In this document: positions 40,289 through 56,017 of the stretch, piece after piece | Layout of the letters: every line of letters starts with the position of its first letter | How positions within the stretch are numbered: the stretch's first letter is position 1 | NCBI GenBank assembly: GCA_949288805.1 | Contig: CASELL010000001.1 | Span: 89,027-153,026 of the forward strand | Direction: 5' to 3' | DNA length: 64,000 bases | Origin: an uncultured Alphaproteobacteria bacterium | GTDB lineage: Bacteria > Pseudomonadota > Alphaproteobacteria > Rickettsiales > UBA1997 | The notes under the pieces: generated by a model | The model's database searches: none | What the model was told of the DNA's origin: nothing | Seen by the model: the letters and a program-made list of their open reading frames with translations, nothing else | Made by a program: the position numbers and the translations under genes

Positions 40289-40297
40289 AACTAACTC

Positions 40298-43200
40298 CTA
40301 TTCTTCTTTTGATTTTTTTAAAGATTCATTCCTTATGGTTTCTTTGTTTTTATTGTAATAATCAGCCCCCATTCTTCTTTTAATTTTATTATCGGTACGA
40401 TTTGAATTAGATTCTATTATTTTAGACGTAAGTCCCTTAATAGCCTTTTTAGGAAGAGCGTTTGTTACATTAGCTATTTTTATCATAGCAGTAGAAGCTT
40501 TAGATAAAATACCAGAAACTGTAAAATTACTCTCTCCCAATTTACCAAATATTTCACCACCAACATCACCAATAAACTTATCAAAAATTCCAAGCAAAAG
40601 CAATAAAAATATCATATCAGAAAATATTTTAAAAAAGTCCATAGAATTTTTAATTACACTAGGAAATCCAGCAAAACCACTAATAAAAATATCAATTAAA
40701 GTAGAACCAGAATTTCCAATGACTTCTTGTGAAGAAACTATACATATAGGAGATTCATTTCCTAAATCAATAACTTTTCCTTTACTTTTTTCTTCGCATT
40801 CCTGAACCATAGAAACAAATTCATCACCAGAACTAGATGGATTATCATATATATAATAGAAATTATTGTTATCTATTTTACATATTTTACCACAATAAAT
40901 ATCCCTAACCGGTTCTCTAACTCCATAAAATTTTGCATCTCCTATATAATATTTATCAAATATTAATAAGAATAACATGGTTGATAATATTGTAAACATT
41001 GGTCTAAATATAAGTTTTAATATACTATTTATCCAAGAATCAAATATTTTTCTTGTTTTTTCTATCAAATATAGAGGTATCACCAATGGAGCCATAAATA
41101 ACAATATAGTTAATTCCAAAGAATATGTTATAAATTGAAGAGCTATTTTTATAGCTATTGCTATTATTCCTATTGTTAATAAAATAAATGGCATAATTGT
41201 CATTATAGCAAAACCAAAAGAAAAAACTCCAGCTATGAAAAAGCTAATTATTGGAATATTTGTTACATTATCTGTTGTAATACCAAAATATCTAGATATT
41301 TTACAATCCAAAGTATCAAATAAAGCTAAATACGATTTTCCAAGTCCATAATCTTCATAATTATTTGGTATTTCATCATGTTTAAAAAAGTAACATCCTT
41401 GATAGTTTGGATTCTTATATATAGAATCATACATTGTGGACGACACTCTATCAAATCTTATTATCTTAGATGATAAATTTACTATATAATTAGATGTACC
41501 ATAAACAGCATTAAATACAGGCTCTTTCCAAGATGTTGTCATAGTAAAATATATAACAAAAATAGATGTTAAAATAAAATGTGTTATATCTTCAACATTT
41601 ATACCTGAATTATTTTTTATTATAATTTTGAAACCATAGAGAACAATAGCTATTGCAAGTATAATTTTAACTATTTCCATTAAACTTTCTTGTAGTTTTT
41701 TAAATGGACCGTCAATATTATATTTTTCTAAGTTTTCTCCTTCTTTATACTCTTCACCACTTAAACAATTATTATTTAAATCAGGTTTTTCTCCAGTTAT
41801 TAAACACTTTGTATGTCCAGCTTTATTGAACAACATATTTTTGAAGGTTTCAACAAAACACTCAACAAAAGGAGCTGTAAACACCCTAGTTGTAGCACCA
41901 CCATAATTTCTGGAATAATTTGTAAAGTTATGAGATGAACCAACACCATTAATGCAGGCTGTTGAAACATAAGGAGAATTAATATTTACTTCAGATGGTT
42001 CAAATTTCTTTATATAAACACAATGTCTATCTATTTGACAAAAATTTGATGGTTTATTATAACAAGGTAATATTTTAATTTCGTATTCACCAACCCTATC
42101 GCCCTGAATCTTTTCAATACAATTACCACCACATTCTTTTATAAAACCAGAAGTTTCATCACCCCTCACTTCACAATTTAATTCATTATCCATAGTAGAT
42201 AACTTTGAAATAACATTTGTATTATTTGAACCATAATCTTCCACATAAACTCCATCCTTATAAGAAATTGGTATATCGTTTTGTGTTGTTGACATAAAAT
42301 CTTGACCAACTTCTTCTGTTCCACCTAATATTGGGAAATTATAAGGGCATAAATTATATGTTTCAACACAATATTTCTCATATTCTCCAGTTATTGATTG
42401 ATCTGATCTTTTTATTTTAAAAGAAACAGTATCTGTGTTCTTTGGTTTATAGTCACATATACTTGAATAATCGATTTTGGCAACATTTTTATCAAATTCT
42501 TCCTGATCTTCGGGTGGTATTGAAAAAGCATTTTCAGAATATTCTGATTCTGGTATACTTAAACAATTAAAAAATCCATTATCTGGACCATATCCAGATG
42601 GACATTTATAATAAAGCCCATATTCTGTTTTATAATAAGAATAAGAACCAACCTCCGAACTATTAGTTGTAACTCCATTTTTTGTATCTTCTATTACATT
42701 TTTTACCTGCTCACATGCTATATTAATGTTAGAATTTTCATTTTCGGTAAAAATACCTGTAGACAAAGAACAATCACCATCCTCATCATATATTGAACAA
42801 AAAACATATACATCTCCATCATAATTAAATTTATTACCTATATTTTCCTTTCTATTTCTAATACATATAGTTTTTTGACTTGCTTCTATACAACATTTAT
42901 AGGCATTTAAATATTCATCTGTGTTTTTTTCTAAAAATCTATCACAAGCAAAATTAGCACTTTCAGTACCTCTAAAATAATATAACTGTGATTTTGTATC
43001 TCCTTTTTTTACGCCTTCATACCTTCTTCTTTCTGGCCTTGGATCTATACAATTGGAATCAAAGTTGTTAGCGTACTCAACGCCGCCATATAAAAATTCT
43101 CTATATTGTTTATATTTTACATCAAGATAAGTATCTATATTAGCAACTGTTATATTTCCATTTTCTTTTTGAAAAATTAAATTACAAAAATCTACTGATT

Positions 43201-44122
43201 TATCCCTAAAACATTTATCTAAAGCATATTTATATGAACCAAAAAAACTCCCTTTTGTAGGAAAAGACTTATCTTGATTGGATGAATTGGTTAGAGAAGA
43301 ATTTATCATATCTAGAGTTATATCTATTGATGTATTTGTTTTAGTTCTAAGATAAGACTCTAAATCTAGTGAAGCATATGTTAACCATTCATCTCCACAC
43401 AAAGCTAAAGTATCAAAATCTTTATCTGCTTTTTTATATTGAAAATAAGAAAGAGTTTCTTTTATTACATAAAAAACAGCAGATAAACCAAGTATCATAC
43501 CTAATTTAACTACAGTTTTTACTCTTTTTGGCAATTTTAGAATAAGAAACATAGCTATACAAACAGCAAAATTTCCCCAATAAATACCTTGACATATTGG
43601 AGTTTTGTTTGTTGGGTCAAGAGAAAAATCATCTTCTCCAGCTATTATCTCTGTTAATTTATCTATACCAGAAGAAGCCAATAATATTAATAAAGGAGCC
43701 AAAAGGGAACTAAAAGCACTTTTACTATTTATAAAATTTGCAACAGTATAAAAAGTCGATATACATAAAACAGGAGCCAATAAAACATCAACTACAATAT
43801 CCCATGCCCAAGCTCCAACTTGAGGACCAATTTCATTAAGACAATTTATACCAGCCAATATTCCGCCACCTTTTGAAGATTGACATTTATTAAAGTCTCC
43901 TTTTTTACTTTCACCATAAAATAAAACACCACCTGGTTTACATGTAAAACCAGTATCAACGGAATATGTATATTTTATACCTTTTTTACCAGTATTAATT
44001 AATGATCTAAGTCTATCTTTTGCTCCAATAGAATCTTCTGCAAAAGATTCAACACTAATAGAAAAAAATAAACAATTAAAAAACAATATAAAAACTAAAA
44101 ATATTCTAAAAAACTTTTTCAT
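40298..44122 (-). CDS. Giant VirB6/TrbL-like T4SS inner-membrane protein (rvhB6-type paralog, about 1274 aa)
   Basis: The track ORF begins at 44155, inside virB4. The Met at 44122 (MKKFFRIFLVF) has an AAGGAG SD and lies 10 nt after the virB4 stop. Signal peptide, Cys-rich domain, TM block with YLALFDTLDCKISRY and RKIFDSWINSILKLIFRPMF. Confidence 0.7.
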   Translation of the reverse strand: MKKFFRIFLVFILFFNCLFFSISVESFAEDSIGAKDRLRSLINTGKKGIKYTYSVDTGFTCKPGGVLFYGESKKGDFNKCQSSKGGGILAGINCLNEIGPQVGAWAWDIVVDVLLAPVLCISTFYTVANFINSKSAFSSLLAPLLILLASSGIDKLTEIIAGEDDFSLDPTNKTPICQGIYWGNFAVCIAMFLILKLPKRVKTVVKLGMILGLSAVFYVIKETLSYFQYKKADKDFDTLALCGDEWLTYASLDLESYLRTKTNTSIDITLDMINSSLTNSSNQDKSFPTKGSFFGSYKYALDKCFRDKSVDFCNLIFQKENGNITVANIDTYLDVKYKQYREFLYGGVEYANNFDSNCIDPRPERRRYEGVKKGDTKSQLYYFRGTESANFACDRFLEKNTDEYLNAYKCCIEASQKTICIRNRKENIGNKFNYDGDVYVFCSIYDEDGDCSLSTGIFTENENSNINIACEQVKNVIEDTKNGVTTNSSEVGSYSYYKTEYGLYYKCPSGYGPDNGFFNCLSIPESEYSENAFSIPPEDQEEFDKNVAKIDYSSICDYKPKNTDTVSFKIKRSDQSITGEYEKYCVETYNLCPYNFPILGGTEEVGQDFMSTTQNDIPISYKDGVYVEDYGSNNTNVISKLSTMDNELNCEVRGDETSGFIKECGGNCIEKIQGDRVGEYEIKILPCYNKPSNFCQIDRHCVYIKKFEPSEVNINSPYVSTACINGVGSSHNFTNYSRNYGGATTRVFTAPFVECFVETFKNMLFNKAGHTKCLITGEKPDLNNNCLSGEEYKEGENLEKYNIDGPFKKLQESLMEIVKIILAIAIVLYGFKIIIKNNSGINVEDITHFILTSIFVIYFTMTTSWKEPVFNAVYGTSNYIVNLSSKIIRFDRVSSTMYDSIYKNPNYQGCYFFKHDEIPNNYEDYGLGKSYLALFDTLDCKISRYFGITTDNVTNIPIISFFIAGVFSFGFAIMTIMPFILLTIGIIAIAIKIALQFITYSLELTILLFMAPLVIPLYLIEKTRKIFDSWINSILKLIFRPMFTILSTMLFLLIFDKYYIGDAKFYGVREPVRDIYCGKICKIDNNNFYYIYDNPSSSGDEFVSMVQECEEKSKGKVIDLGNESPICIVSSQEVIGNSGSTLIDIFISGFAGFPSVIKNSMDFFKIFSDMIFLLLLLGIFDKFIGDVGGEIFGKLGESNFTVSGILSKASTAMIKIANVTNALPKKAIKGLTSKIIESNSNRTDNKIKRRMGADYYNKNKETIRNESLKKSKEE

Positions 44123-44132
44123 ATCGTCTCCT

Positions 44133-46538
44133 TTATAATTTTTTAGATCTTTCATAATATATATCTAACCAATCTTCCGGTTTATCACTCCCAATTTCTT
44201 TTATTATTTCGTTTAATAAAATAACCGTTTCAGCTCTACCAGACAAAACCCTAATTACATCACCCATACCACCTAAATCAACCCTAGCTATAACACCACC
44301 TTGATCTTGTTTGACTAAAAAATATCTTGAACCAGGATCGGTTGTTTTAATTAATTGAAATTCTCTTTCACTTAACATAAAAGCAGTTTTATAAACATCT
44401 GTTGCTTTTAAATTTGGCAAATATATTTGTGTTGCTGTTTGTTGAACAAGAGTATCTGATATACTACTTTTAGTAGCGTCTTCTACTGACTGTGTAGCAA
44501 ATACAACAAATGCATTTAATTTTCTGAATACCTTTAACCAGTCTTTAATCTTAGGAGCAAAAACTGGATTATCAATCAAGGCCCAAGCCTCATCAAGAAT
44601 AATCATAGTTGGAGTTCCATCTAATGAACTTTGTATTCTATGAAATAAATATAATAATACAGGACTAATACTCTTTTTATCCTTTAATATCTCACCCATT
44701 TCAAAACCAAAAGCATAAGCAGAGAAAAAATCAATTATATCTTCATCATTATCAAACAATTTAGCATGAGATCCATCGCTATGCCACATTTCTAATCTAC
44801 CAGCCAAAGATCCAGGACCCCCCATTCCTAAAAATGGAGCAATATTTCTCAATCTTCTTTTTTCAAATGGCAATCTATAATTACCATTTATAGCTTCGGT
44901 AATTCTAGCCATATCCTCCGCTGTTATACTTTCACCATTAACAGTCAGTAAAACTGTTAACCATTCTATTAAGAAAGCTTTATTTTCAGCAGTCTCTGGC
45001 AATCTTAATGGATTAAAACCAGAATATCTACTAGCTTCTAATACAGAATATTTTCCACCAAGCGCTCTAATAAATATTTCCGCACCTCTATCTTTATCAA
45101 AAAAGAACATTCTACAATTAAATTTTTGAGCTTGTGCACATAAGAAATTCATCATAACAGTTTTACCAGCACCAGTAGGTCCAATAATCATAGTATGTCC
45201 AACATCTCTAACATGAAAACTAAAAAAATACGGTGTTCCCGAAACAGTATTTAATACAGTACAAGCATCTCCCCAATGATTACCGGTCCTTTTACCAGAA
45301 GGATAATTATGGAAAGAAGCAAAACTAGCAAGATTTAATGTATTAATTGTAGATTTTCTAACTATATATTTAATATTTCCAGGAAGTTGCGACCAAAAAC
45401 AAGCTTCCATATTCATTCTTTCTCTAATAGCAGTAATACCAACATTTGAAAACTCAACTATAGCCATAGAAACGGCACTTTCAACAGTTTTAGGACTGTC
45501 TTCGAAACATGTAATACTCAAATGATGACTACCAAAAGCAAACTTACCACTCATAGCAGCATCAAGAGCTTGGTCAATCTCTCTAATTTGTGATACAGCC
45601 ACGTCATCTGACTGAATCATTCTTCTTTGTTGTAATTGCATACTACTAATAGCAATCATTCTATTAATATAAACATAAGATTGACATATAATAAATTCAA
45701 ATGGCATTTGTAAAAAACCATCTAAAATACCAGCATTAGTAGATGGTCTATATTCCTTAACAGAAGCTATAGCTCCATATTTTTTTATTGTAGGAGTCAT
45801 TATTTCAAATACTTTTGGTCCAAAATATAATCTATTTGTATGTATATAATGATCTAGAGGAATAGGAGATAATCTATAATTCTGTATATCTCCACAATTT
45901 ACTATAACACCTAGAAACTTTAATATTTCAGAATAAACACCATCAGGAGTTTCTCTTAACGATAATAATTCTGGTTTATAATTCATAAAACCATTTAAAA
46001 CTCTGTCTGTAATTTCGTCCAATTCAGACATGGCATCTCTCATAGCTTTTTGTTTAGCGCTTTTATCTGCTTTATTTCTCAATTTACTAATAAAATTACC
46101 AATTTTAGCTATACCAGCTGTATCATCTTTTCTAACTATGCTAATATAATGTTCGTTTACAAAACATTTATCACCTGAATGTCTATCTTTCCATTCTTTA
46201 TTTAATTTTTTAGTAAAAATATTTGTATAAGTACCACCTGGATAAGCCTCCTCTCTTCTTCTAATAGTATGAAACCATAAGGCAAAATTACCAGAAGCCA
46301 TGCCTTTTAATAAGTTATTTCTAGCATTCTTTTTAATATCTATGTCATCATCGTCTGCAGTTTCAAAAGCAAAACCAGAAATCTTGATGACTTTTAACAA
46401 ACTACCATCTTTTAATAATATTGTATCATCTTTACAATGCAAATAATATGGAATATAATCCGAAGAACTTCTTTCTTTTGATAAATATCTCTGCCTTTCC
46501 ACCAAATTATTTGCTATATCAAACATACTAAACCTCAA
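44133..46538 (-). CDS. virB4: Type IV secretion ATPase VirB4
   Basis: Walker A IIGPTGAGKTVMMNF, Walker B region TMIILDEAWALID, VFATQSVEDA. About 800 aa. The start may be the ATG at 46526 (MFDIANN) rather than the TTG at 46538. Confidence 0.95.
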   Translation of the reverse strand: MRFSMFDIANNLVERQRYLSKERSSSDYIPYYLHCKDDTILLKDGSLLKVIKISGFAFETADDDDIDIKKNARNNLLKGMASGNFALWFHTIRRREEAYPGGTYTNIFTKKLNKEWKDRHSGDKCFVNEHYISIVRKDDTAGIAKIGNFISKLRNKADKSAKQKAMRDAMSELDEITDRVLNGFMNYKPELLSLRETPDGVYSEILKFLGVIVNCGDIQNYRLSPIPLDHYIHTNRLYFGPKVFEIMTPTIKKYGAIASVKEYRPSTNAGILDGFLQMPFEFIICQSYVYINRMIAISSMQLQQRRMIQSDDVAVSQIREIDQALDAAMSGKFAFGSHHLSITCFEDSPKTVESAVSMAIVEFSNVGITAIRERMNMEACFWSQLPGNIKYIVRKSTINTLNLASFASFHNYPSGKRTGNHWGDACTVLNTVSGTPYFFSFHVRDVGHTMIIGPTGAGKTVMMNFLCAQAQKFNCRMFFFDKDRGAEIFIRALGGKYSVLEASRYSGFNPLRLPETAENKAFLIEWLTVLLTVNGESITAEDMARITEAINGNYRLPFEKRRLRNIAPFLGMGGPGSLAGRLEMWHSDGSHAKLFDNDEDIIDFFSAYAFGFEMGEILKDKKSISPVLLYLFHRIQSSLDGTPTMIILDEAWALIDNPVFAPKIKDWLKVFRKLNAFVVFATQSVEDATKSSISDTLVQQTATQIYLPNLKATDVYKTAFMLSEREFQLIKTTDPGSRYFLVKQDQGGVIARVDLGGMGDVIRVLSGRAETVILLNEIIKEIGSDKPEDWLDIYYERSKKL

Positions 46539-46834
46539 TAAATATCATAAGAGTTAACCCCACCATGAAAAGTTTTATTAGCACATAAATTAAAGTTACT
46601 AGTTTTCATTAACAATAATTCAATCATAAGAGGTTCTTTTAAACATATAAAATATGCAATACAATGAAGTGTAGGCATCATAACCAATAAATAAACAAAA
46701 TTACTAGTCATAATAAAAGCCATAACAGAACCTATAGCATTAAGCGCTGCATAAACATAAGTAACGCCCAATATCATACTTGGTCTTGTTAAACCCAAAA
46801 ACAATGGATCAGCTTCTATTCTTCCGTTGGCCAT
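46535..46834 (-). CDS. virB3: Type IV secretion protein VirB3
   Basis: 99 aa, DPLFLGLTRPSMILGVTY followed by a hydrophobic helix. Sits immediately upstream of virB4 and ends in TGA. Confidence 0.85.
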   Translation of the reverse strand: MANGRIEADPLFLGLTRPSMILGVTYVYAALNAIGSVMAFIMTSNFVYLLVMMPTLHCIAYFICLKEPLMIELLLMKTSNFNLCANKTFHGGVNSYDIY

Positions 46835-46860
46835 TATAAAAAAGTATATACCTTGCTAGA

Positions 46861-46888
46861 ATTATATAAGCTTAAAAAAGAAAATCAA
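46861..46888 (-). promoter_or_regulatory. Sigma70-like promoter candidate for the virB3-virB4-virB6 operon
   Basis: Minus strand: TTGATT (46883-46888), 16-nt spacer, TATAAT (46861-46866), 26 nt upstream of the virB3 ATG. Confidence 0.45.
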
Positions 46889-46900
46889 GTAAAATTTTTT

Positions 46901-49900
46901 TTAATTGATGTATATTATATTTTCCAGACCAAAACCATATAAATCGTTAACTTGACATATTTTTAACTTATCTGGGTATTTATCAAAATAATAATCATAT
47001 TCTCTTTTATTTTCAATATATATACTATCAATAATTTCTTCATTTTTCAAAAATTCCAAATAATATTTTTCAGTTTTCTCAACAGATATATGATCTCTAT
47101 TATTCAACCAATTTACATACCCCCTACTCTTTTCTTTCCATTCTACATGTAAATAATTATCATATTTTTTATATTTTAAAAAACAAACTTTCATAGGTTT
47201 TAGATTTATACCTTTTATGTAATAAGTATAACTCTTTTCATTATCACCATCAATACTATTAATTTTATAATAATATTGATAATCTATTTTATCGTAATCG
47301 TAAGTTTGTTTATTTGTATATTCATTTAACAAAACAAAAATTTCATTTTCTTTATGATTATTAATTTCATCTTCAGTATCAAACAAACCTCTTAATAATT
47401 CGCTTATAGTATAAGTACCATCTTCATTTAAAACAATTTTATTAAATTGTATAATCTCCTTTCCATATAAAGCAATATTTTCGCCACTTAATATTGTATC
47501 TATATTTTTAAACATATCATCATCAATATTATGATTAAAATTAACAATTATTTTAGTATGTTTATCAAAATAATACGGTCTAATATTGATATCTTGTTCT
47601 AATTTCAAAACACTACCTATGCCACTACTAACTCTACTTTCAAATAAAAAATTATAACTATTATTATTTTTTGATTCATAAATATAAGCGCCTCTCCAAG
47701 TTTTTAACTCACCACTAACAACAAAAAATACATTAATTTTATCTATCATATCATTATTTAAAGCAGGAACTTCAACAATATTCAAATTACTATCACCAAC
47801 TCCCTGTAATATATCAATATTATCATTAATTTCATTATCTTCTTTTACATTATATATAGTATTATCAAATATTTTTGCTTGTACTTTTATTGTATAATTT
47901 TCTATACTTATATTAGTTATTTTTAATATATATTTATAATCATTAACAATTAAACTAACAATATCACTAGTTTCAAGATATATATAATTCAAAGGTAATA
48001 TAAAATCAAAAGTAATTCTTTCTAACCAAGTAGAATATAATATAGTTTCAGCAATAGTTTTTGCTCTGCTTTCTTCTAATATTATAGGTATTGTTTCAAC
48101 ATAAACATTATTATTATTTATAGAGGTTCTTTCAACATAAACAGAATTAGTATCATAATCTCTATTTTTGTCTAAAAATATTAAATTAACTCTTTGAGGT
48201 AAATCTTTATCACTAACTAATTCAATATTAATGTATTTGTTATTACTTATCTCTATTAAATCTTTATTACTAATTTCTATAATATTGTTATTGTTTTTAT
48301 TTGATATAAAGGCAATTTTACCATTTTTTTCTACACAATCAAAAAAATATACCTTTTGTAAAATATAAAAAACATCCCTAACAGTCATTGTATTATTAAT
48401 AACAAAACCGTTTATGAATTCATCAAGATTTATATTATCAAGTAAAGATAAATCTATATCTGCATCTTTAAATATTTGGGTTATTGAAACTTTAGCATTA
48501 GATAACCCAACTTTACCATTCAAAGAATAATCATATTTCCAATTCTCACCATCTTTCCATATATCAACTTTATTAGGATAATAAGGATAAGGCCTTATGT
48601 CCCAATAATACACAAACTTATTTTCTATATATTCAACATTTTTAAAAACTTCTTCTGTCGCCTCTATTGCTATTCTTTGAGCATAAAAATTACTATCTCC
48701 CATAGAATAAACTGGCAATTCAACAACTTTATATGGTTCATTTGTAGCTCCATCTATTGATCTAAAACCATATTCCGTAAACCATATTTTTTTCAATCTT
48801 TCACTCCAAGGACTAAAACTACCATCTTTATTAGTGTGTTTATTATTCCACCAATATTCAATATTTTTATAACCATCTTTATCTTCTATGTTTATTTTCT
48901 CATCATCCACAATTATATAATCATAACCCTCACCACTAAACCAAGATTGTTTTATTAAATCTTTATTTATACTATCTTGTGGACAATTAGTTAAAGGAAA
49001 GAAAGCTTTTATCCCTACAAAATCTATATATTCACTAGCCCACAATTTATCTAAATTATAATAACCATCTAAACTATGATATTCTTTAAAACCAGCACTA
49101 TAACTAACTTTTACATTTTCTCCAACTATTTCTTTTACTTGTTTTGCTAATTCAATTAAATTATTAACTCCAACAAAATTATAATTTTCATCATGAATAC
49201 TTGTAATTGAAGTAAGTTCATTTCCTATTAAAAAAACATCAATATAATCTTTTAATAAATTAGCATAATGTAAAATAAATTCATTATAACCATTATTTTT
49301 TTTAAAAAAATTATCAATATCTTCTATACTACCATTTAATAATTTATAAGAAGGAGTATTTTCAATATCAACTAATATTTCAGGACAAAATACAGTTTTT
49401 TTATTTCTATTTTTTAATTCTTTGAAAAAACTTAAAACATCATTATCACCAAAACTTGCTCCATTAAATCTAAAAGTTCCATCGCTATTTTTACCAAGAA
49501 GTGGTGTATTATATCTATTCCATTTTGTCCCAACTTTAAAAGAATCTGGTTTTGTGTAAATAGGATAACCAATTGTATTTGGATAAGAAGTAAAAACATT
49601 AAAATCAACTCTTGGCTTTAATTCACAATCTTTAATATTTAAACTATCAGCAAACATTGCAATATGAGGTACAACCCATTCACAATTAACAAATCTATCT
49701 AATAATTGATTTAAAGATAATAGTCCATCAGCAATATTTTCACTATTATTTTGATTTAATACAGTCCACGATCCAACACCAGATGGTATATAGTCAGGAT
49801 TTATTTGATCTTCAGCTCTATATTGTATTTTAGTATTTAATCTTGAATAACCATTACAAGGCATTAAATTAATGCCTTTTACACAAAAATCTAAACTATT

Positions 49901-50539
49901 TTCATCAATAGTATAATCATTTTTTCTTGTTATTTCAAATAAAAAATTAGGTATTCTATTGTTAAACTCTGTTAAAGGAAAGTTTTCAAAAACAATATAA
50001 CACATATCTCTATAAGCAGGAGTTTTTCCAATTCCATTTATAGCTTCCATCAAAGAATCAGGCTCTTGATTACTTGTTCCATTATAAAATCTATATTTAT
50101 ATTTTTTTAAATCTAACAATGTAGAATCAGCCCATATATTTTTAATATCTTCAACTTCACCTTTACATATTGATATAGCAAAACTTAAATAATAAAAATA
50201 TTCTATACTTGTTTGTTTTATTTTTTGGCCCTTACCTATTTTTATAGAGGTTGTATTAGTATTATAAACTTCTTTAATATCTCCTAACCATATTATATTA
50301 CCAGCAATTCTGTTTGTTCCATATATTAAAGGTATTACTTTATTATAGCTTGAAGCCTGTATTGATATTTCAGATAATTTACCGGTTATTTTATCTTTTT
50401 TCCATGTAGTTGTTCCAAAACTATCTTTTACATCGTCAACTAAATTAATAATTTGATTTTTTTTGCTATTTATAGAACTTAAGGCTTGCGAAAAAATAAA
50501 AGTGGTCATTTGAATTATTGTTTTTTCTTTATTTTTCAA
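46901..50539 (-). CDS. Gene-transfer-agent g15-like baseplate/host-specificity protein (phage-tail N-domain plus TIM-barrel-like glycoside hydrolase-type domain)
   Basis: The N-terminal block LSEISIQASSYNKVIPLIYGTNRIAGNIIWLGDIKE...YFYYLSFAISICKGEVEDIKNIWADSTLLDL...YRFYNGTSNQEPDSLMEAINGIGKTPAYRDMCYIVFENFPLTEFNNRIPNFLFEI follows the conserved N-terminus of alphaproteobacterial GTA ORFg15 homologs as I remember it. The central IDVFLIGNELTSIT resembles the GTA TIM-barrel-like motif. Confidence 0.75.
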   Translation of the reverse strand: MKNKEKTIIQMTTFIFSQALSSINSKKNQIINLVDDVKDSFGTTTWKKDKITGKLSEISIQASSYNKVIPLIYGTNRIAGNIIWLGDIKEVYNTNTTSIKIGKGQKIKQTSIEYFYYLSFAISICKGEVEDIKNIWADSTLLDLKKYKYRFYNGTSNQEPDSLMEAINGIGKTPAYRDMCYIVFENFPLTEFNNRIPNFLFEITRKNDYTIDENSLDFCVKGINLMPCNGYSRLNTKIQYRAEDQINPDYIPSGVGSWTVLNQNNSENIADGLLSLNQLLDRFVNCEWVVPHIAMFADSLNIKDCELKPRVDFNVFTSYPNTIGYPIYTKPDSFKVGTKWNRYNTPLLGKNSDGTFRFNGASFGDNDVLSFFKELKNRNKKTVFCPEILVDIENTPSYKLLNGSIEDIDNFFKKNNGYNEFILHYANLLKDYIDVFLIGNELTSITSIHDENYNFVGVNNLIELAKQVKEIVGENVKVSYSAGFKEYHSLDGYYNLDKLWASEYIDFVGIKAFFPLTNCPQDSINKDLIKQSWFSGEGYDYIIVDDEKINIEDKDGYKNIEYWWNNKHTNKDGSFSPWSERLKKIWFTEYGFRSIDGATNEPYKVVELPVYSMGDSNFYAQRIAIEATEEVFKNVEYIENKFVYYWDIRPYPYYPNKVDIWKDGENWKYDYSLNGKVGLSNAKVSITQIFKDADIDLSLLDNINLDEFINGFVINNTMTVRDVFYILQKVYFFDCVEKNGKIAFISNKNNNNIIEISNKDLIEISNNKYINIELVSDKDLPQRVNLIFLDKNRDYDTNSVYVERTSINNNNVYVETIPIILEESRAKTIAETILYSTWLERITFDFILPLNYIYLETSDIVSLIVNDYKYILKITNISIENYTIKVQAKIFDNTIYNVKEDNEINDNIDILQGVGDSNLNIVEVPALNNDMIDKINVFFVVSGELKTWRGAYIYESKNNNSYNFLFESRVSSGIGSVLKLEQDINIRPYYFDKHTKIIVNFNHNIDDDMFKNIDTILSGENIALYGKEIIQFNKIVLNEDGTYTISELLRGLFDTEDEINNHKENEIFVLLNEYTNKQTYDYDKIDYQYYYKINSIDGDNEKSYTYYIKGINLKPMKVCFLKYKKYDNYLHVEWKEKSRGYVNWLNNRDHISVEKTEKYYLEFLKNEEIIDSIYIENKREYDYYFDKYPDKLKICQVNDLYGFGLENIIYIN

Positions 50540-50657
50540 TACATTTTTTTTATACGGCAGTATATAAAATTCTTTATTAAAAAAAATTAACTAAATATTT
50601 TTTAATCAACATTAAACATTTTTATATAAAAAATGTTCTTTTTTTAAACATTTTTTC

Positions 50658-50686
50658 TTGACATTTAAAAAATTATGTTTTACAAT
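50658..50686 (+). promoter_or_regulatory. Near-consensus sigma70 promoter with no downstream CDS
   Basis: TTGACA (50658-50663), 17-nt spacer, TACAAT (50681-50686). Confidence 0.5.
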
Positions 50687-50692
50687 GTATTC

Positions 50693-50781
50693 GAAACAGA
50701 GTTTTGTTTTTTATTTTTTTCCTTTATTTTTTAATCAGGGTTGGTATTTAGAATACCAACCTTGCTTTTTAGTACAAACAA
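50693..50781 (+). ncRNA. Candidate small U-rich RNA of about 90 nt, defined by promoter plus intrinsic terminator
   Basis: Predicted TSS is about 7 nt after the -10 box. The transcript would end at the 50746-50780 terminator. No ORF. The identity is unknown, and the ends are inferred, not measured. Confidence 0.35.
50746..50780 (+). terminator. Intrinsic terminator
   Basis: 12-bp stem cagggttggtat/ataccaaccttg (one G-U pair), 5-nt loop ttaga, followed by cTTTTT. Confidence 0.6.
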
Positions 50782-50823
50782 TAAAAAAGTAATATAGTCT
50801 AAATGCTATAAAAACATAAAATT

Positions 50824-50995
50824 AAAAAAACATTATTATGGTAATAGTACCACTAAAAGGGATGAATAGTTGTCACTAAGACCTTGTATGTAAAGTGGGT
50901 ATCACATACCGCAACCACGATTGCGACAGAGGCGACTCCCGAAAGTATTAAAAGAGTCTCTGGGATTCATACAAATTCTGTCCCTTAAAGTAGTA
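50824..50995 (-). ncRNA. Candidate structured RNA of about 170 nt, family unknown, with its own near-consensus promoter
   Basis: The 140-nt core 50852-50991 has 58 G+C by hand count, against extremely AT-rich flanks. Its 5' and 3' ends pair (ACUUUAAGGGA with UCCCUUUUAGU). Internal helices: CAGAG-ACUC/GAGU-CUCUG, CGCAA/UUGCG, UAUGUGA/UUACAUA. A weak hairpin plus U7 at 50824-50853 is a possible 3' end. Confidence 0.5.
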
Positions 50996-51000
50996 ATAAT

Positions 51001-51029
51001 ATTGTATAAATTAATTATTAAATAGTCAA
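51001..51029 (-). promoter_or_regulatory. Near-consensus sigma70 promoter driving the structured RNA candidate
   Basis: Minus strand: TTGACT (51024-51029), 17-nt spacer, TACAAT (51001-51006). The predicted TSS near 50994 is immediately 5' of the closing stem. Confidence 0.55.
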
Positions 51030-51115
51030 GTACTATTTATATTTATTTTTTTTAATATTGATTTATTATTATTAAATACTATTATCTATATTGTATAAAA
51101 ATAATTTTATAGTAT

Positions 51116-51445
51116 ATGTTTTACGTAAGAAAAACCATGGAAATATCCGCTTCACACCAAGTAGAATTTCCTACAGAACATAAATGTGAAAAATTACATG
51201 GTCATAACTGGACTATTGATGTTTTTTGTAAAAATGAAACTTTAAATGAAAATGGTGTAGTTGTTGATTTTACAGAAATTAAGAAAATAGTTCATGGAAA
51301 ATTAGATCATCAAAACTTAAATGAAGTTTTAGATTTTAATCCTACTTCTGAAAATATTGCTAAATGGATAGTTGATAACGTCCCTTTTTGTTATAAGGCT
51401 ATCGTTAGAGAAAGTCAAAACAATGAGGCTACTTATGAGCTTTAA
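51116..51445 (+). CDS. 6-carboxytetrahydropterin synthase QueD / 6-pyruvoyl-tetrahydropterin synthase (PTPS) family
   Basis: ISASHQ at the N-terminus and the CEKLHGHNW zinc/catalytic motif. 109 aa. Confidence 0.8.
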   Translation: MFYVRKTMEISASHQVEFPTEHKCEKLHGHNWTIDVFCKNETLNENGVVVDFTEIKKIVHGKLDHQNLNEVLDFNPTSENIAKWIVDNVPFCYKAIVRESQNNEATYEL

Positions 51446-51977
51446 TCTTGAAGAATTAGAAAAATCAACTAATATTTTTTTAAAAGCAATAGGTGAAGAT
51501 ATAAAAAGAGAAGGGTTAATTGAAACACCAAAAAGAGTTGCTAAAAGTTGGGCTGAATTATTGAATGGTTATAATCAAAACGACAAACAATTTTATAAAA
51601 CATTTAATTGTGATAATAGCAATCTTATAATTATTAAAAATATTGAATTTACATCATTTTGCGAACATCATATTTTACCATTTCAAGGACTAATTACAAT
51701 AGGCTATGAACCAAATGGTAAAGTTTTAGGATTAAGTAAATTTGGAAGAATTGTTGACTGTTTTGCTAAAAGATTACAATTACAAGAAAAACTAGTTAAT
51801 GATATAGGTAAGTCAATACTTGAAAATTTAAAGCCTAAATCATTATTTGTAATATCAAAAGCAACTCATTCCTGTATGGCTTGTAGGGGAATTAAAAAAC
51901 AAAAATCTAATACATTAACATTTTTTACATATGGAAAAAAATATAATGAATTAGATTTAATTAAATTAATTGATTAA
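51435..51977 (+). CDS. folE: GTP cyclohydrolase I (type 1)
   Basis: TPKRVAKSW, FTSFCEHHILPF and ATHSCMACRGIKK. The track ORF starts at 51372, but the ATG at 51435 (MSFNLEE) is more likely. It overlaps the queD-like end by 11 nt. Confidence 0.9.
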   Translation: MSFNLEELEKSTNIFLKAIGEDIKREGLIETPKRVAKSWAELLNGYNQNDKQFYKTFNCDNSNLIIIKNIEFTSFCEHHILPFQGLITIGYEPNGKVLGLSKFGRIVDCFAKRLQLQEKLVNDIGKSILENLKPKSLFVISKATHSCMACRGIKKQKSNTLTFFTYGKKYNELDLIKLID

Positions 51978-52586
51978 TATTTTTAAAGATTCTTTTATTA
52001 AATTAATCGACCATTTTAATATTATTATTGCCCCCAAAATACCAATTAAAGGATCAAAAAATATTAAATTAAAATATTTACCTAATAATAGAGCAATTAT
52101 TGCTATAATTGATGTTAAAGCATCTGTTAATATATGTAAATATGCAGACTTAAAATTTAAATTTTCCTCGATATGATGCTCATGGTGATGATGTGAATGA
52201 TTATCTTTCATTAATAATATAGACACCAAATTAACAATTAAACCTATAATAGCAACTAAAATAGCTTCGTTAAAATAAATGTTTTCTCTTTTTATAAGTT
52301 TTTCTACTGATTCATAAAAAATAAAAAAAGACGTTAAAAGAAGTAAAATTGCGCTAGTATAACCACCAATTGCATTTAATGTTTTTTCTTTTTCTTTATA
52401 TTTTGTAATAAATATACATATAATATAAGTTATAGATAAAGCAAAAACATGTGTACCCATATGAAAACCATCAGCAGTTAAAGCCATAGAATTAGTTATT
52501 ATACCAAAAAATATTTCAGCAAACATTGTTATTAAATCTACAATTATAACTAATTTTGTTTTTCTTTTTAATTCGTTATTATTCAT
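51966..52586 (-). CDS. Short cation diffusion facilitator (CzcD/ZitB-like TM domain with His-rich loop; no obvious C-terminal cytoplasmic domain)
   Basis: NSMALTADGFHMGTH (TM2 site), HILTDALTS (TM5 site), loop DNHSHHHHEHHIEEN. Only 206 aa. Its 3' end overlaps the folE 3' end by 12 nt (convergent). Confidence 0.75.
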   Translation of the reverse strand: MNNNELKRKTKLVIIVDLITMFAEIFFGIITNSMALTADGFHMGTHVFALSITYIICIFITKYKEKEKTLNAIGGYTSAILLLLTSFFIFYESVEKLIKRENIYFNEAILVAIIGLIVNLVSILLMKDNHSHHHHEHHIEENLNFKSAYLHILTDALTSIIAIIALLLGKYFNLIFFDPLIGILGAIIILKWSINLIKESLKILIN

Positions 52587-52594
52587 AATTAATC

Positions 52595-52867
52595 CTAATC
52601 AACTTTACTAATATTATTAACTAATTCTTCTATTAATTCTCTATAATCGTTATTATTTTTTATTGAATTAGTAATATGATTGTTAAGGTGATCTTTTATT
52701 ATTTCTTTACTAACACCTTTTAAAGCAGATCTAATAGAAGATATTTGATTTAATATTTCAATACACTCTCTACCTTCTTCTATCATCTTTGATATAGCTT
52801 TAACTTGTCCCTCTATTCTGTTAAGACGAACCTTTAAATTTTTTTCATTTTCATAATAACATTTCAT
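52595..52867 (-). CDS. CsoR/RcnR/FrmR-family metal-sensing transcriptional repressor (DUF156)
   Basis: LNRIEGQVKAISKMIEEGRECIEILNQISSIRSALKGVSKEIIKDHL is the characteristic RIEGQ core. 90 aa. Lies 8 nt upstream of the CDF gene. Confidence 0.85.
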   Translation of the reverse strand: MKCYYENEKNLKVRLNRIEGQVKAISKMIEEGRECIEILNQISSIRSALKGVSKEIIKDHLNNHITNSIKNNNDYRELIEELVNNISKVD

Positions 52868-52873
52868 AAAATA

Positions 52874-52901
52874 ATATACATTATAGCCCTATAATGTATA
52901 T
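52874..52901. promoter_or_regulatory. 28-bp palindrome: operator candidate for the CsoR-family repressor, overlapping a TATAAT box
   Basis: ATATACATTATAG CC CTATAATGTATAT has perfect 13-nt arms. It lies 7-34 nt upstream of the repressor ATG. On the minus strand the arm contains TATAAT. Confidence 0.4.
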
Positions 52902-52986
52902 ATAAAAAATAAATTTTAAAAGTCAATATATTACTATATAAAATAAAAAAGACTTGATTTTTATTTTTTAAAATAATACAATATTT

Positions 52987-54063
52987 TTGTTAATTAATTT
53001 TATTATTGTGCTTAAAAAAATTAGTAATATATTTAAAACAAAAAGAATAATAGTAGTGTCTGATGGAAGTATTAAAACCACAGAGATCAATAATTGGAAT
53101 AGGTGTTTTAGATTTTTAATCTTTTTATGGTGTATTTTTACAAGTGTATTTTTCTTATTTAATTATAGAATCCAACTTGTAAAAGATAAAAAAATTATAG
53201 AACTAAAAAATATAAATGCCAGTTTAAATAATAGTATTACAGATCTAAATTCAATTGTTAATAATGTAGAAGAATATTTGACTACTTTAAATTTTTATGA
53301 TAGATTTAGTGATATAGACGTATCAAAAGTCAATAATGTTAAAAATAAACTTAAAAATGATAGTTATATAACAGTTGAGGAATATAAACAAATAATACCA
53401 ATTTTAGATAAAATAGAACATACTATAAATAATATTGATATTTTGGTTAGTTCTAGAGTAAATGGTATAAATAAATTGTTACAAGAGGTTTCTTTGGATA
53501 CAAAAGCTAGAGAAATGTATAATGTTAGTTATAAAAATAATGATACAACTGTTGAAAATAGTTTATTTAAAAATAGTGCGCTTGTTAGAACAAGTGATTT
53601 CTTGGATTTAAAATATAACATAGATTACTTAAACTTTTTAGAATCTTTTTTAGATTCTATACCTATGGGAAAACCAATGAAAAATTACTATTTATCTAGT
53701 AGGTTTGGTTCTAGAATAGATCCATTTACAAAACAAGTTAAAACACATAATGGTTTAGATTTTGCTGGACCATACAATTCAGTTGTCTATGCTCCAGCCG
53801 ATGGTGTTGTTATGTTTACTGGAATTAGAGGTGGTTTTGGAAATAGTTTGAATATAAAACATAAAAACAATATAACAACAGATTATGCTCATTTGGGAAA
53901 AATACTCGTTAAAGAAGGTGATGTTATAAAAAGAGGAGATAAAATAGGAATTCAGGGTTCAACTGGTAGAAGTACCGGTCAACATCTTCATTGGGAAGTT
54001 AGAGTTGATAATAAAAGGGTTGATCCATTGAAGTTTATAAAAGTTGGAGAAAAGGTATTTTAA
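52987..54063 (+). CDS. M23-family peptidoglycan metalloendopeptidase with N-terminal anchor and coiled-coil region
   Basis: HNGLDFAGP, DYAHL and GRSTGQHLHWEVRV (HxxxD / HxH M23 motifs). TTG start is uncertain. Confidence 0.85.
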   Translation: MLINFIIVLKKISNIFKTKRIIVVSDGSIKTTEINNWNRCFRFLIFLWCIFTSVFFLFNYRIQLVKDKKIIELKNINASLNNSITDLNSIVNNVEEYLTTLNFYDRFSDIDVSKVNNVKNKLKNDSYITVEEYKQIIPILDKIEHTINNIDILVSSRVNGINKLLQEVSLDTKAREMYNVSYKNNDTTVENSLFKNSALVRTSDFLDLKYNIDYLNFLESFLDSIPMGKPMKNYYLSSRFGSRIDPFTKQVKTHNGLDFAGPYNSVVYAPADGVVMFTGIRGGFGNSLNIKHKNNITTDYAHLGKILVKEGDVIKRGDKIGIQGSTGRSTGQHLHWEVRVDNKRVDPLKFIKVGEKVF

Positions 54064-54070
54064 TAAATAA

Positions 54071-54487
54071 GTGGAGAACAATATGGTTTTAATAAATTCA
54101 AAAGATATTCCTTCCGTTATTTCAAAGTCCGTAAATATAAATGGAGATATTACTAACGGTGGTATTATAGAAATAGAAGGAAATATAGAAGGTAACATTA
54201 CGGCAGATACTGTCACAATAAGAGAAGGTGGTTTTATAAAAGGTAATATAAATTGTAAAACATTTAATATAAAAGGTAATTTTAATGGAAATGCTAGATC
54301 TGATAAAATAAATATAGCAGATACAGCAATTATAAATGGATTATTAGAGTATAACTTTTTATCTGCTGATTATGGTGCTAATATTAATTGCGAATTAAAA
54401 AGATTAACAGACCAAAAAAATGCTGTAAAATTATCTGATATTTTAAAAAAAGATGAAAAGAAAGAAGAAAATAAAAAAAATAATTAA
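54071..54487 (+). CDS. Bactofilin (polymer-forming cytoskeletal protein, CcmA-like)
   Basis: Beta-helical repeat pattern INGDITNGGIIEIEGNIEGNITADTVTIREGGFIKGNINCKTFNIKGNFNGNARSDKINIADTAIINGLLEY with a K/E-rich tail. The start could be the ATG at 54083. Confidence 0.8.
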   Translation: MENNMVLINSKDIPSVISKSVNINGDITNGGIIEIEGNIEGNITADTVTIREGGFIKGNINCKTFNIKGNFNGNARSDKINIADTAIINGLLEYNFLSADYGANINCELKRLTDQKNAVKLSDILKKDEKKEENKKNN

Positions 54488-54530
54488 TTAATAATTTATT
54501 AACAAACTTAATAAAGGTGGTAAATATATA

Positions 54531-54716
54531 ATGGTTCAAGTAGTAATAGGAGATCAAAATAAACTGGAAATGGGTATTAGGATTTTTAGAAAAAAGACCC
54601 AAAAAGAAGGAATAATTAAAGAATCTAGAAGAAGAGTTGAATATGAAAAACCTTCCGAAAAAAGAAAAAGAAAAATTAAAGAAAGTATTTCTAGATCGAA
54701 AAAAAAGAAAAAATAA
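54531..54716 (+). CDS. rpsU: 30S ribosomal protein S21
   Basis: MVQVVIGDQNKLEMGIRIFRKKTQKEGIIKESRRRVEYEKPSEKRKRK. AAAGGTGG SD. Confidence 0.9.
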   Translation: MVQVVIGDQNKLEMGIRIFRKKTQKEGIIKESRRRVEYEKPSEKRKRKIKESISRSKKKKK

Positions 54717-54758
54717 TAATGTTTATGTTTTTTAATATTAATAAAATGAGTAAAAACA

Positions 54759-54962
54759 ATGGCAGTACCAAAAAAGAAAACTTCTCCCTGTAAAAGAGGT
54801 TTGAGAAGAGGAGGAAACGGAACATATAAGCTAAATATGCCAAATGTTGTCGTTAATAAAGAAACAGGAGAATATCAATTACCTCATCATATATCTGTAG
54901 ATGGATATTATAAAGGTAAAAAGGTTATTCAAGAAAAAAACAAAGATAAAACAGAACAATAG
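54759..54962 (+). CDS. rpmF: 50S ribosomal protein L32
   Basis: MAVPKKKTSPCKRGLRR N-terminus. Canonical rpmF-plsX-fabH order. Confidence 0.9.
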   Translation: MAVPKKKTSPCKRGLRRGGNGTYKLNMPNVVVNKETGEYQLPHHISVDGYYKGKKVIQEKNKDKTEQ

Positions 54963-54964
54963 TT

Positions 54965-56017
54965 ATGTTAAATAAAAAAATTACCATATCTCTCGACTGT
55001 GCTGGTGGAGATAACTATCCAAAAGCAATGGTTGGAGGTATGGCAAAGTTTTTTGAAAAAAATAAAGATAAAGATAATATTAATTTTCTATTATTTGGTG
55101 ATGAAAATAGTATAAAAAAAGAAATAAACAAATATAATTTAAAAAAAGAATTCTATAAAATCATACATACAGATAAAAAAATAACTTCTGAAGATAAACC
55201 AACAAATGCCCTAAAAAAAGGAAAAGATTCTAGTATGTGGTTAGCGATAGAATCTGTTAAAAATAAAGAGTCTAATGCCTGCATATCAGCAGGCAATACA
55301 GGGGCTTTAATGGTTCTTTCTAAGTTTATATTAAGACCATTAGAGGGCGTTGATAGGCCAGCATTAATTCAATTATTACCATCAAAAAATAATAGCACAG
55401 TAGCCTTTTTAGACTTGGGAGCTAATGCAGAATGTAATTCTGAAAATCTTTATCAATTTGCCTTGATGGGAAGTGTTTTTTATACTTCTATAACAAAAAA
55501 ACAAAATCCAAAAATTGGTCTACTAAATATAGGTTCAGAAGATCTAAAAGGAAACGAATACGTAAGGAATGCAAGTCTAGAATTAAAAAACAGTATTTTA
55601 AAAGACAATTTTTATGGTTTTGTGGAAGGGAATGATATTTTTAATAACGTTGTTGATGTTATAGTTACAGATGGCTTTACTGGAAATATAACTTTAAAAA
55701 CTATAGAAGGAACTGTTAAATTTTTGTCTTTAAATCTAAAACAAATGTTTAAAAAGTCTTTGTTATCTATGATTGGACTTTTATTTTTATTTCTACCATT
55801 AAAAAAATTTAAGAAAAAACTAAGTCCAGAAACATATAATGGAGCTTTATTTATAGGTTTAAACGGAATATCTGTTAAGGCACATGGTAATTCTAACGAG
55901 AAATCCTTTTATTTTGCTATTGAAAACACTATAAAAATGGTAGAGGATAATATAAATACAAAAATTATGGATTTATTGTCTGAAGTAGAAAACGAGGAAG
56001 AAAATGAAGAAATCTAA
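54965..56017 (+). CDS. plsX: Phosphate acyltransferase PlsX
   Basis: ISLDCAGGDNYP, SAGNTGALM and VVTDGFTGNITLKTIEG. Confidence 0.9.
   Translation: MLNKKITISLDCAGGDNYPKAMVGGMAKFFEKNKDKDNINFLLFGDENSIKKEINKYNLKKEFYKIIHTDKKITSEDKPTNALKKGKDSSMWLAIESVKNKESNACISAGNTGALMVLSKFILRPLEGVDRPALIQLLPSKNNSTVAFLDLGANAECNSENLYQFALMGSVFYTSITKKQNPKIGLLNIGSEDLKGNEYVRNASLELKNSILKDNFYGFVEGNDIFNNVVDVIVTDGFTGNITLKTIEGTVKFLSLNLKQMFKKSLLSMIGLLFLFLPLKKFKKKLSPETYNGALFIGLNGISVKAHGNSNEKSFYFAIENTIKMVEDNINTKIMDLLSEVENEEENEEI

Follow-up and report, generated by a model that had tools for sequence, protein, structure and literature searches.

A GTA-type megatron (g15) gene without neighbouring GTA genes in an uncultured, AT-rich Rickettsiales lineage

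To judge from its sequence, the minus-strand gene that precedes virB3 in the stretch of DNA analysed here (the window, 64 kb in length) is a Rickettsiales ortholog of megatron (g15), the baseplate protein of gene transfer agents (GTAs) and siphophages. Probably (we put the probability at about 0.6) it has been inherited vertically and belongs to a reduced set of GTA genes dispersed over the genome, as is typical of Rickettsiales. This interpretation is supported by the match to the megatron family, the full length of the gene, the selection acting on it, its chromosomal relatives, its solitary state in six of six clade lineages, and the literature. As it stands, the result is a correct annotation and no discovery.

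Family assignment, domains and the glycosidase-like barrel

The predicted protein matches the Pfam families GTA_TIM (3.5e-38; 132.1 bits, gathering cut-off 27), Phage-tail_3 (1.7e-28; 100 bits, cut-off 23) and Rcc01698_C (1.4e-11; 45 bits, cut-off 27), in that order, which places it in the GTA/siphophage megatron family. It also matches PHROG 4271, 'tail protein' (1.5e-193). The score against NCBIfam NF048004, GTA_megatron (697.9 bits), lies below the 800-bit equivalog cut-off, which fits the generic NCBI names carried by its relatives. RcGTA g15 in the PDB is matched in two stretches (phmmer, 3.6e-67); residues 51-311 align with RcGTA g15 54-304 (i-Evalue 5.6e-29) and residues 419-1140 with 448-1225. 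A profile of the clade aligns with RcGTA g15 (6TBA) from residue 1 at 7e-224, and the similarity is collinear over the full length, iris and adhesin-like part included. The sequence-only reading, which had recognized g15 homology in an N-terminal residue pattern and had pointed to GTA_TIM and Phage-tail_3 as the domains to be expected, is thereby confirmed. Its nearest homologs (35-71% identity) are chromosomal and come from Rickettsiales metagenome-assembled genomes (MAGs), Rickettsia endosymbionts and Jidaibacter.

The minus-strand frame 46901..50539 is open for 1212 codons when read from a TTG at 50539, and a protein of 1212 aa had been proposed on that basis; the open frame stands, and the start is moved. 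The ATG at 50509, giving 1202 aa, is almost certainly the real start, judged by comparison with homologs, because five clade relatives begin with MTTFIF, in alignment with the N-terminal iris helix of RcGTA, and gene callers give 1202 aa for sister contigs. The clade relative at 44% identity begins with MASFVF. The gene is intact, as had been stated: it is an uninterrupted frame encoding a full-length g15 megatron, it is unbroken in all strains and relatives, and every clade member has both the full length and the conserved N-terminus.

All five domains of the RcGTA megatron, as defined in the RcGTA structure paper (Bardy et al., 2020; PMC7296036), are kept: the iris/penetration helix, the adhesin-like domain, the peripheral domain with its GH-A barrel, the gp27-like central domain, by which the RcGTA protein attaches to the hub and the distal tail protein, and the fibre-binding domain. 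Their positions are given in Table 1.

Table 1. Coordinates of the megatron gene, its domains, putative catalytic codons and flanking regions in the window
Feature	Position	Strand	Basis or remark
Megatron CDS (GTA g15-type baseplate multidomain protein)	46901..50509	-	1202 aa; ATG 50509, stop TAA 46901-46903
Iris/penetration segment, residues 1-40 (MTTFIFSQALSSINS...)	50390..50509	-	Homologous to RcGTA g15 1-46; N-terminus conserved in clade; profile alignment to 6TBA
Adhesin-like domain, residues 41-200	49910..50389	-	Most constrained part (dN/dS 0.06-0.13)
Peripheral domain with GH113-like clan GH-A (beta/alpha)8 barrel (predicted), residues 201-645	48575..49909	-	GTA_TIM at 407-645; AF2; Foldseek
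Codon for E431 (FLIGNEL), putative general acid/base	49217..49219	-	Aligned with Glu of GH113 'GCEM' segment
Codon for E579 (IWFTEYG), putative nucleophile, end of barrel strand	48773..48775	-	Homolog conservation; AF2 model
Central domain, residues 706-867	47909..48394	-	Pfam Phage-tail_3
Fibre-binding domain, residues 868-1202	46904..47908	-	Rcc01698_C at 1004-1059; least conserved domain
Spacer between megatron and virB3, 66 nt	46835..46900	-	Promoter-like TTGATT-16-TATAAT; no terminator-like hairpin
Intergenic region between megatron and divergent queD-folE pair, 606 nt	50510..51115	.	Presumed megatron promoter and structured element

The AF2 model of the peripheral domain (pLDDT 93.2, pTM 0.91) has the (beta/alpha)8 barrel fold of clan GH-A. 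Its best structural match in Foldseek is 8GTC_M (4e-18, TM 0.77), followed by GH113 mannanases (2e-12, TM 0.75) and then by PslG, GH53, GH1, GH2 and GH10. The TIM-barrel-like region with a LIGNEL motif that had been noticed in the sequence is thus recovered, with the motif at residues 427-432 (1202-aa numbering) and a Pfam GTA_TIM match. Profile alignment places IGNEL on the GCEM segment of GH113 enzymes, and the putative acid/base, E431, is present in about 90% of homologs; the putative nucleophile, E579, is conserved in at least 95% of 110 homologs. Glycoside hydrolases of clan GH-A such as GH113 carry two catalytic glutamates, an acid/base and a nucleophile, at the ends of barrel strands 4 and 7. 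E476, a candidate acid/base obtained by counting strands in the model, was rejected in favour of E431 because of the profile alignment; being invariant, it is probably part of the active-site lining. Many other polar and aromatic residues of the barrel are invariant as well. For the model, the peripheral domain can confidently be described as a GH113-like barrel in which both putative catalytic Glu are conserved. This lends residue-level support to the view that the megatron peripheral domain may be a GH113-like retaining glycosidase, with E431 and E579 as candidate catalytic residues.

Genomic surroundings and selection

A Pfam scan of 46 of the 56 listed ORFs, namely the non-nested main ones with 90 aa or more, revealed no further structural gene of a GTA or phage in the window, and custom HMMs for g12 and g13 found neither when run on every six-frame ORF of 60 aa or longer. 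The description of the gene as lone in the window therefore holds. The sequence-only reading had allowed that an ordinary GTA or prophage cluster might lie just outside; no GTA or phage structural gene occurs within 10 kb past the left end of the window or within about 3 kb past the right end, as read on sister contigs. An RcGTA-like arrangement (adjacent g12, g13 and g14 in a head-tail cluster of at least nine genes) is absent in and near the window.

The same state is found throughout the clade: in six of six lineages (44-71% identity) megatron is solitary, and each time it lies in a different neighbourhood, among differing housekeeping genes. In the wider family, g12 and g13 directly precede megatron in 95 of 105 loci, all 10 exceptions having a GC content of 30-38%, and in viral contigs of IMG/VR they do so in all 61 loci. 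A scan of genome contigs with the single protein returned one distant locus alone; a metagenome scan with the clade alignment, which served the synteny survey, returned relatives at up to 39% identity and no clade members. The hub gene, g13, was sought with a chimeric g12+g13 query from a relative at 35% identity and with the most AT-rich g13 match, using an amino-acid composition filter. No g13 that could be linked to this lineage by source, member count and composition appeared among the best 120 of 896-1367 matches, a scope that says nothing on absence; the missing clade g13 is therefore uninformative.

Megatron ends exactly 66 nt upstream of virB3, as had been reported. The virB3 promoter candidate proposed for this gap is present in the sequence, but it is no evidence of a promoter because such matches occur in this AT-rich region (23% GC) at chance frequency (50 found vs 47.1 +/- 7.1 in shuffles). 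In the region upstream of megatron, no Rfam match was obtained at E <= 1.

Purifying selection acts on all domains of megatron. Between the window and a sister strain there are 21 synonymous and 12 nonsynonymous differences (dN/dS 0.13; binomial p = 1.2e-8), and dN/dS to the nearest relatives is about 0.2, a rough value because dS approaches saturation (about 1.0-1.5) once the comparison extends to the nearest other species. These ratios agree with the earlier suggestion that the copy is held under selection. Each domain has dN/dS below 0.55; constraint is tightest in the adhesin-like domain, which is non-enzymatic, and the fibre-binding domain carries 19 of the 33 substitutions between window and sister strain. 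The alleles of different strains are mosaics, and the patchy divergence between strains points to active recombination in the population, a process that a working GTA would feed.

Interpretation of the lone megatron

If megatron belongs to a scattered GTA gene set, it would form a trimer at the distal end of a GTA-like tail, whose hub and distal-tail proteins would be encoded elsewhere in the genome. The trimer would bind a polysaccharide on the surface of the recipient and may cleave a beta-linked glycan in it, and opening of the N-terminal helices, as proposed for RcGTA, could then allow DNA to exit. The adjacency to virB3 would have arisen by genome rearrangement within the species and would carry no functional meaning. 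Counted against this interpretation are the NF048004 score below the cut-off and the lack of the expected partners (g12-g14, capsid, portal, terminase) among the genes recovered for this lineage, no clade-linked g13 having appeared among the best 120 matches.

An alternative, possible though on balance unlikely, is that the other GTA genes have been lost and that the lone megatron has been co-opted as a trimeric factor that binds or cleaves glycans on host, prey or envelope polysaccharide and that might be released by lysis or a non-classical route. Its solitary state among different housekeeping genes in all six lineages would fit such a change of function, as would a barrel in which both putative catalytic Glu are retained and many polar and aromatic positions do not vary. 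That endosymbionts might repurpose parts of a GTA has been raised by George et al. (PMC9254644). The failure of each of the two hub searches to recover a clade g13 also points this way, but only among the best 120 matches, which makes it uninformative. The N-terminus, which does not resemble a signal peptide, and the retention of every particle-specific domain (iris helix, gp27-like central and fibre-binding) at full length and with dN/dS < 1 argue against co-option. Moreover, the C-terminus is not basic, and the tightest constraint falls on the non-enzymatic adhesin-like domain rather than on the barrel. A stricter form, in which megatron is the sole GTA gene remaining in the clade and acts as a stand-alone trimeric GH113-like glycosidase/adhesin selected for interaction with glycans of hosts or neighbours, is doubtful. 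If it were true, the allelic mosaicism would reflect selection on a surface-recognition protein, and a phage baseplate protein would have been domesticated on its own, the remainder of the particle having been left behind.

The position of the gene might also mean that megatron works with the rvh type IV secretion system (T4SS) or is exported by it as cargo, being co-transcribed with virB3-virB4-virB6, a link implied when the gene was first described; the genes share a strand, and the gap has no terminator-like hairpin. A singleton g12 lies less than 1 kb from virB genes in every Anaplasma/Ehrlichia genome analysed (Shakya et al., 2017; PMC5721377). However, no virB gene occurs within 10 kb of megatron in any of five related lineages or in any of 179 loci of other organisms, so that the adjacency is incidental and confined to this one species, and a promoter-like virB3 site lies in the gap. 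No T4SS is known to employ a megatron-like protein. Synteny with virB3-virB4-virB6 is not conserved, and a role in the T4SS, very improbable in our judgement, is largely refuted. Still less credible is that the gene was recently acquired from a prophage or phage as a tail gene, or that it is a relic in decay. Homologs do occur in roseophages and Rhodobacter phages, and at a distance of 18 kb there is a gene for a tyrosine recombinase (28442-29326), but this is the only one in the window and is XerC/D-like, no phage genes adjoin megatron, and the hallmarks of a prophage (adjacent integrase with morphogenesis or lysis genes, atypical composition) are lacking. The GC content of megatron equals that of the surrounding genome, and its best phage match reaches about 26.5% identity, against 35-71% for chromosomal copies of Rickettsiales. 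Decay is contradicted by the unbroken frame in all strains and relatives and by the strong purifying selection.

Comparison with known systems

RcGTA g15 (Rcc01698; PDB 6TBA, 6TEH; PMC7296036) has the same five domains in the same order over its full length, with an iris helix, adhesin-like motifs, a TIM barrel with both Glu, a Phage-tail_3 central domain and Rcc01698_C. The protein described here differs in its sequence, which is identical at roughly one quarter to one third of the aligned positions (an alignment estimate, not an exact value), in being about 100 aa shorter, in having GNE where RcGTA has GTE in the acid/base motif, and in being encoded without adjoining g12-g14 or a head-tail cluster. 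The megatrons of siphophages (Dinoroseobacter phage R4C, PDB 8GTC_M; RDJL-type roseophages; Rhodobacter phages) likewise share the fold and the domain order, but at 25-26.5% identity, and in the viral contigs of IMG/VR g12 and g13 directly precede the gene. With the GH113 beta-1,4-mannanases of clan GH-A (AaManA 3CIV/4CD6, AxMan113A 5YLH, BaMan113A 7DV7), the predicted barrel has in common the (beta/alpha)8 fold (TM 0.75 over the enzyme), the alignment of IGNEL on the GCEM segment, and a second conserved Glu in FTEYG on a later strand; it differs in its low identity (10-14%), in large insertions and in its location inside a baseplate protein. The singleton g12 of Anaplasma/Ehrlichia resembles the present case as a lone GTA tail gene near Rickettsiales vir genes, but the gene there is g12, not g15, and the adjacency spans two genera rather than one species.

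Complete GTA clusters had been expected in other orders of Alphaproteobacteria rather than in Rickettsiales-like lineages. The survey by Shakya et al. (2017; PMC5721377) bears this out for large clusters, and in it Rickettsiales have only small ones, most of them singletons. The lone copy is therefore not the unusual case that it had been taken for. Megatron, hub and distal tail genes are widely conserved in Rickettsiales, as are capsid and portal genes, and are transcribed in Sneabacter with dN/dS < 1 (George, 2022; PMC9254644); Orientia keeps six scattered GTA genes, megatron and hub among them (Giengkam, 2023; PMC10732058). With the present find, the Rickettsiales in which selection maintains a megatron from a scattered GTA set come to include an uncultured lineage of extreme AT content. 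The field asks why GTA parts persist in obligate symbionts whose genomes are tiny, and complete genomes with a partnerless megatron could help to answer this. Compared with the scattered sets of Wolbachia, Orientia, Rickettsia and 'Ca. Sneabacter', the present lineage stands out as uncultured and as far richer in AT (GC content about 23%), and adjacency to virB3 is unreported there for g15; the kinship with these sets is seen in the relatives of its megatron in Rickettsia endosymbionts and in Jidaibacter at 35% identity.

Gene model, domains and the TIM barrel

The megatron, a GTA g15-type baseplate/tail-tip protein, is encoded by an open frame running uninterrupted from 50539 to 46901 on the minus strand. 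Judged from the sequence, its start is placed at ATG 50509 (stop TAA 46901-46903), because the N-terminus is conserved in all six lineages of its clade (MTTFIF in five, MASFVF in the 44% relative) and because 1202 aa is the length called by gene callers on sister contigs. The protein matches Pfam GTA_TIM (3.5e-38) and Phage-tail_3 (1.7e-28), the two families that the sequence-only reading had named as a check, as well as Rcc01698_C (1.4e-11) and PHROG 4271 'tail protein' (1.5e-193); with the NCBIfam GTA_megatron equivalog model it scores 697.9 bits, under the 800-bit cut-off. The top PDB match is g15 of RcGTA, the reference gene transfer agent (6TBA/6TEH, 3.6e-67), and the second is the 'Megatron protein' of phage R4C (8GTC_M). 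Alignment of residues 51-311 to RcGTA g15 54-304 verifies the N-terminal ORFg15 pattern recognized earlier, and residues 419-1140 align to 448-1225. All five domains of the RcGTA scheme (PMC7296036) are present, namely iris/penetration, adhesin-like, peripheral (with the TIM barrel), central and fibre-binding, so that the description of an intact g15-type gene with a TIM-barrel region holds.

Conservation among 110 homologs is highest in the TIM barrel and the adhesin-like domain. The closest solved structures to a confident AlphaFold2 model of residues 201-700 (pLDDT 93.2, pTM 0.91) are the R4C megatron and then GH113 beta-mannanases (E 2e-12, TM 0.75), with PslG, GH53 galactanases and other clan GH-A enzymes further down. 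Profile alignment places IGNEL on the GCEM segment of GH113, the Glu of which we take to be the acid/base, and in the 110-homolog alignment E431 is retained in ~90% and E579 (IWFTEYG) in at least 95% of sequences. Because of the GH113-like model, the IGNEL alignment and the conservation of E431 and E579, the barrel looks like a competent retaining beta-glycosidase, as a prediction from sequence and model.

Neighbourhood and solitary state

On the 3′ side, the same strand continues with virB3, virB4 and a pair of giant virB6-like genes, the last two matching the typical layout of Rickettsiales rvh systems, of which enlarged, multiple VirB6 copies are a hallmark (PMC11077975). The gap of 66 nt to virB3 stands and contains TTGATT-16-TATAAT; promoter-like matches in this 23% GC DNA are no commoner than in shuffled sequence (50 observed vs 47.1 +/- 7.1). 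On the 5′ side, a 606-nt spacer precedes divergent queD and folE. It contains a GC-rich island of ~150 nt (43-47% GC vs ~12% in the flanks) with a multi-stem fold (-45.2 kcal/mol, z = -3.0 on the minus strand and -37.6, z = -1.8 on the plus strand), flanked by a promoter-like site ahead and a T-run after. This island is 100% identical in sister strains, matches nothing in Rfam at E <= 1, is not repeated at other loci, and is a candidate for an unknown small RNA or leader upstream of the megatron gene. Between it and the megatron start sits a perfect hairpin, the region's single terminator-like site against 0.4 expected, with a strong plus-strand promoter-like site ~50 nt before it.

Features of the window
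Feature	Position	Strand	Remarks
Strain-variable island	~3400-17800		~14.5 kb
Type III restriction enzyme	3398-6412		in island
Methylase	6423-8459		in island
SNF2-type helicase	9067-12294		in island
1234-aa ORF	12420-16124		in island; no Pfam match; 16% GC DNA
AAA_14/DUF4143 ATPase	16423-17787		in island
Region of raised strain divergence	17000-25300
HipBA-type toxin-antitoxin pair	22103-23514		hipA-like kinase gene and upstream HTH gene
Two VirB6/TrbL-domain proteins	34661-44155		1285 and 1875 aa; after virB3-virB4
Intergenic region	50510-51115
Promoter-like site	50658-50686	plus	11/12 matches
Hairpin	50736-50764	plus	13 bp, 5 GC pairs, then CTTTTT
GC-rich island	50830-50990	minus
Promoter-like site	51029..51001		TTGACT-17-TACAAT

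The earlier statement that the window holds no other GTA or phage structural gene is borne out: Pfam scans of the main ORFs, 46 of the 56 listed with 90 aa or more once nested antisense frames are set aside, detect neither capsid, portal nor terminase, and no tail tube, tape measure or g12-g14 gene. Purpose-built HMMs for g12 (distal tail) and g13 (hub), applied to every ORF of 60 aa or longer in the six frames, give no match either. Nor does an ordinary cluster begin just outside, no such gene occurring in the 10 kb past the left end, where the sister-strain scaffold carries surA, recJ, dnaG, rpoD and rimM, or in the ~3 kb past the right end. At the latter distance, a 536-aa glycine-rich protein (Pfam ALK_LTK_GRD) adjoins yceG, and contigs from three assemblies (L016, L017 and L018) all end right after it, which suggests a repeat or variable region there.

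Where related loci extend 5 kb or more upstream, g12 and g13 lie immediately upstream of the megatron in 34 of 44 metagenome contigs and all 61 IMG/VR contigs (median g13-megatron distance, 504 nt); the ten loci lacking them all have 30-38% GC. A solitary megatron is therefore unusual across the family at large. It is solitary in all six clade lineages examined (99%, 68%, 60%, 59%, 50% and 44% identity), with a different housekeeping neighbourhood in each, and a more distant Rickettsiales contig has g12, g13 and megatron side by side. The five related lineages all lack homologs of virB3, virB4 or virB6 within 10 kb of the megatron, and so do all 179 loci of other organisms. The adjacency to virB3, specific to the window's species, is best explained as an accident of rearrangement, and the T4SS link it had implied falls away.

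Selection, strain mosaic and origin

Between the window and its sister strain, 33 substitutions separate the megatron genes, of which 21 are synonymous (661 sites) and 12 nonsynonymous (2945 sites) (dN/dS 0.13; synonymous excess, binomial p = 1.2e-8), and the suggested check for purifying selection was thus positive. Ratios against the 68%, 60% and 59% relatives are ~0.2-0.34, rough values with dS near saturation (0.8-1.5). Every domain lies below 0.55, constraint being strongest in the adhesin-like domain (0.06-0.13) and weakest in the fibre-binding domain (0.2-0.47). Decay of the gene is excluded.

Comparison with scaffold_45 of the sister strain covered 12 flanking genes on the upstream side, 11 of them identical and one, prmC, with a single substitution; virB3 and virB4 are identical too. 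The megatron gene differs by 0.9% (codons 1069-1181 hold 19 of the 33 changes), virB6-1 by 0.4% (range 0.2-0.5%) and the 17-25 kb region by 1-3%, with 0-1 differences per 10 kb elsewhere, the contrast being that of 17000-25300 and 40000-50000 with 50000-60500; variant blocks are combined differently in other strain alleles. The strain divergence is a recombination mosaic extending beyond the megatron, and such patchiness is typical of homologous recombination between co-occurring strains. The strain-variable island, absent from scaffold_45, is probably a defence island; the HipBA-type pair occurs in the sister strain too.

Among 120 listed of 178 homologs, metagenome proteins are in the majority and the named ones are mostly from Rickettsiales MAGs, Rickettsia endosymbionts and 'Ca. 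Jidaibacter'; the 59% relative carries the NCBI name 'Rickettsiales bacterium', and so does a VirB4 fragment with 90% identity or more. Because of these Rickettsiales homologs, a best phage homolog at just 26.5% identity and a GC content equal to that of the surroundings, the gene fits vertical inheritance and not recent phage import.

A probable dispersed GTA and known Rickettsiales systems

On the best explanation, the megatron would be one piece of a dispersed GTA with partner genes elsewhere in the genome, to which we assign a probability of roughly 0.6. The particle-specific domains are retained and constrained, which we regard as indirect evidence that the protein still works in a baseplate. 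Co-option of a lone protein, the chief alternative, seems rather unlikely. The best 120 of the 896-1367 matches to two hub-protein queries include none that is attributable to the window's lineage. The observation of a lone intact g15 gene 66 nt from virB3 is confirmed, and its earlier interpretation is partly supported: the solitary state is shared by all six clade lineages examined, and its supposed unusualness does not survive the literature on scattered Rickettsiales GTA genes. Only small clusters, 'most singletons', are described in this order (Shakya et al. 2017, PMC5721377). Capsid/portal, distal tail/hub and megatron are broadly conserved over it, with several clusters per genome, 'Ca. 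Sneabacter' transcripts and dN/dS <1 (George et al. 2022, PMC9254644), and every Orientia genome has six scattered GTA genes, megatron among them (Giengkam et al. 2023, PMC10732058). To this already described pattern, the present gene adds modest new detail on selection, putative catalytic residues and an incidental T4SS adjacency.

In Anaplasma and Ehrlichia, a singleton g12 lies at most 1 kb from virB genes (Shakya et al. 2017, PMC5721377), a curiosity that does not carry over to the megatron. The largest Rickettsiales cluster reported in 2017, of five genes (Shakya et al., PMC5721377), is exceeded by a GTA-like cluster on contig L019 (1-20771; JGI 3300045996, 'Rickettsiaceae bacterium'), in which at least eight homologs within 21 kb (connector, head-closure, tail-completion, major tail, g12, g13, NlpC/P60 and megatron) are interspersed with unknown ORFs.
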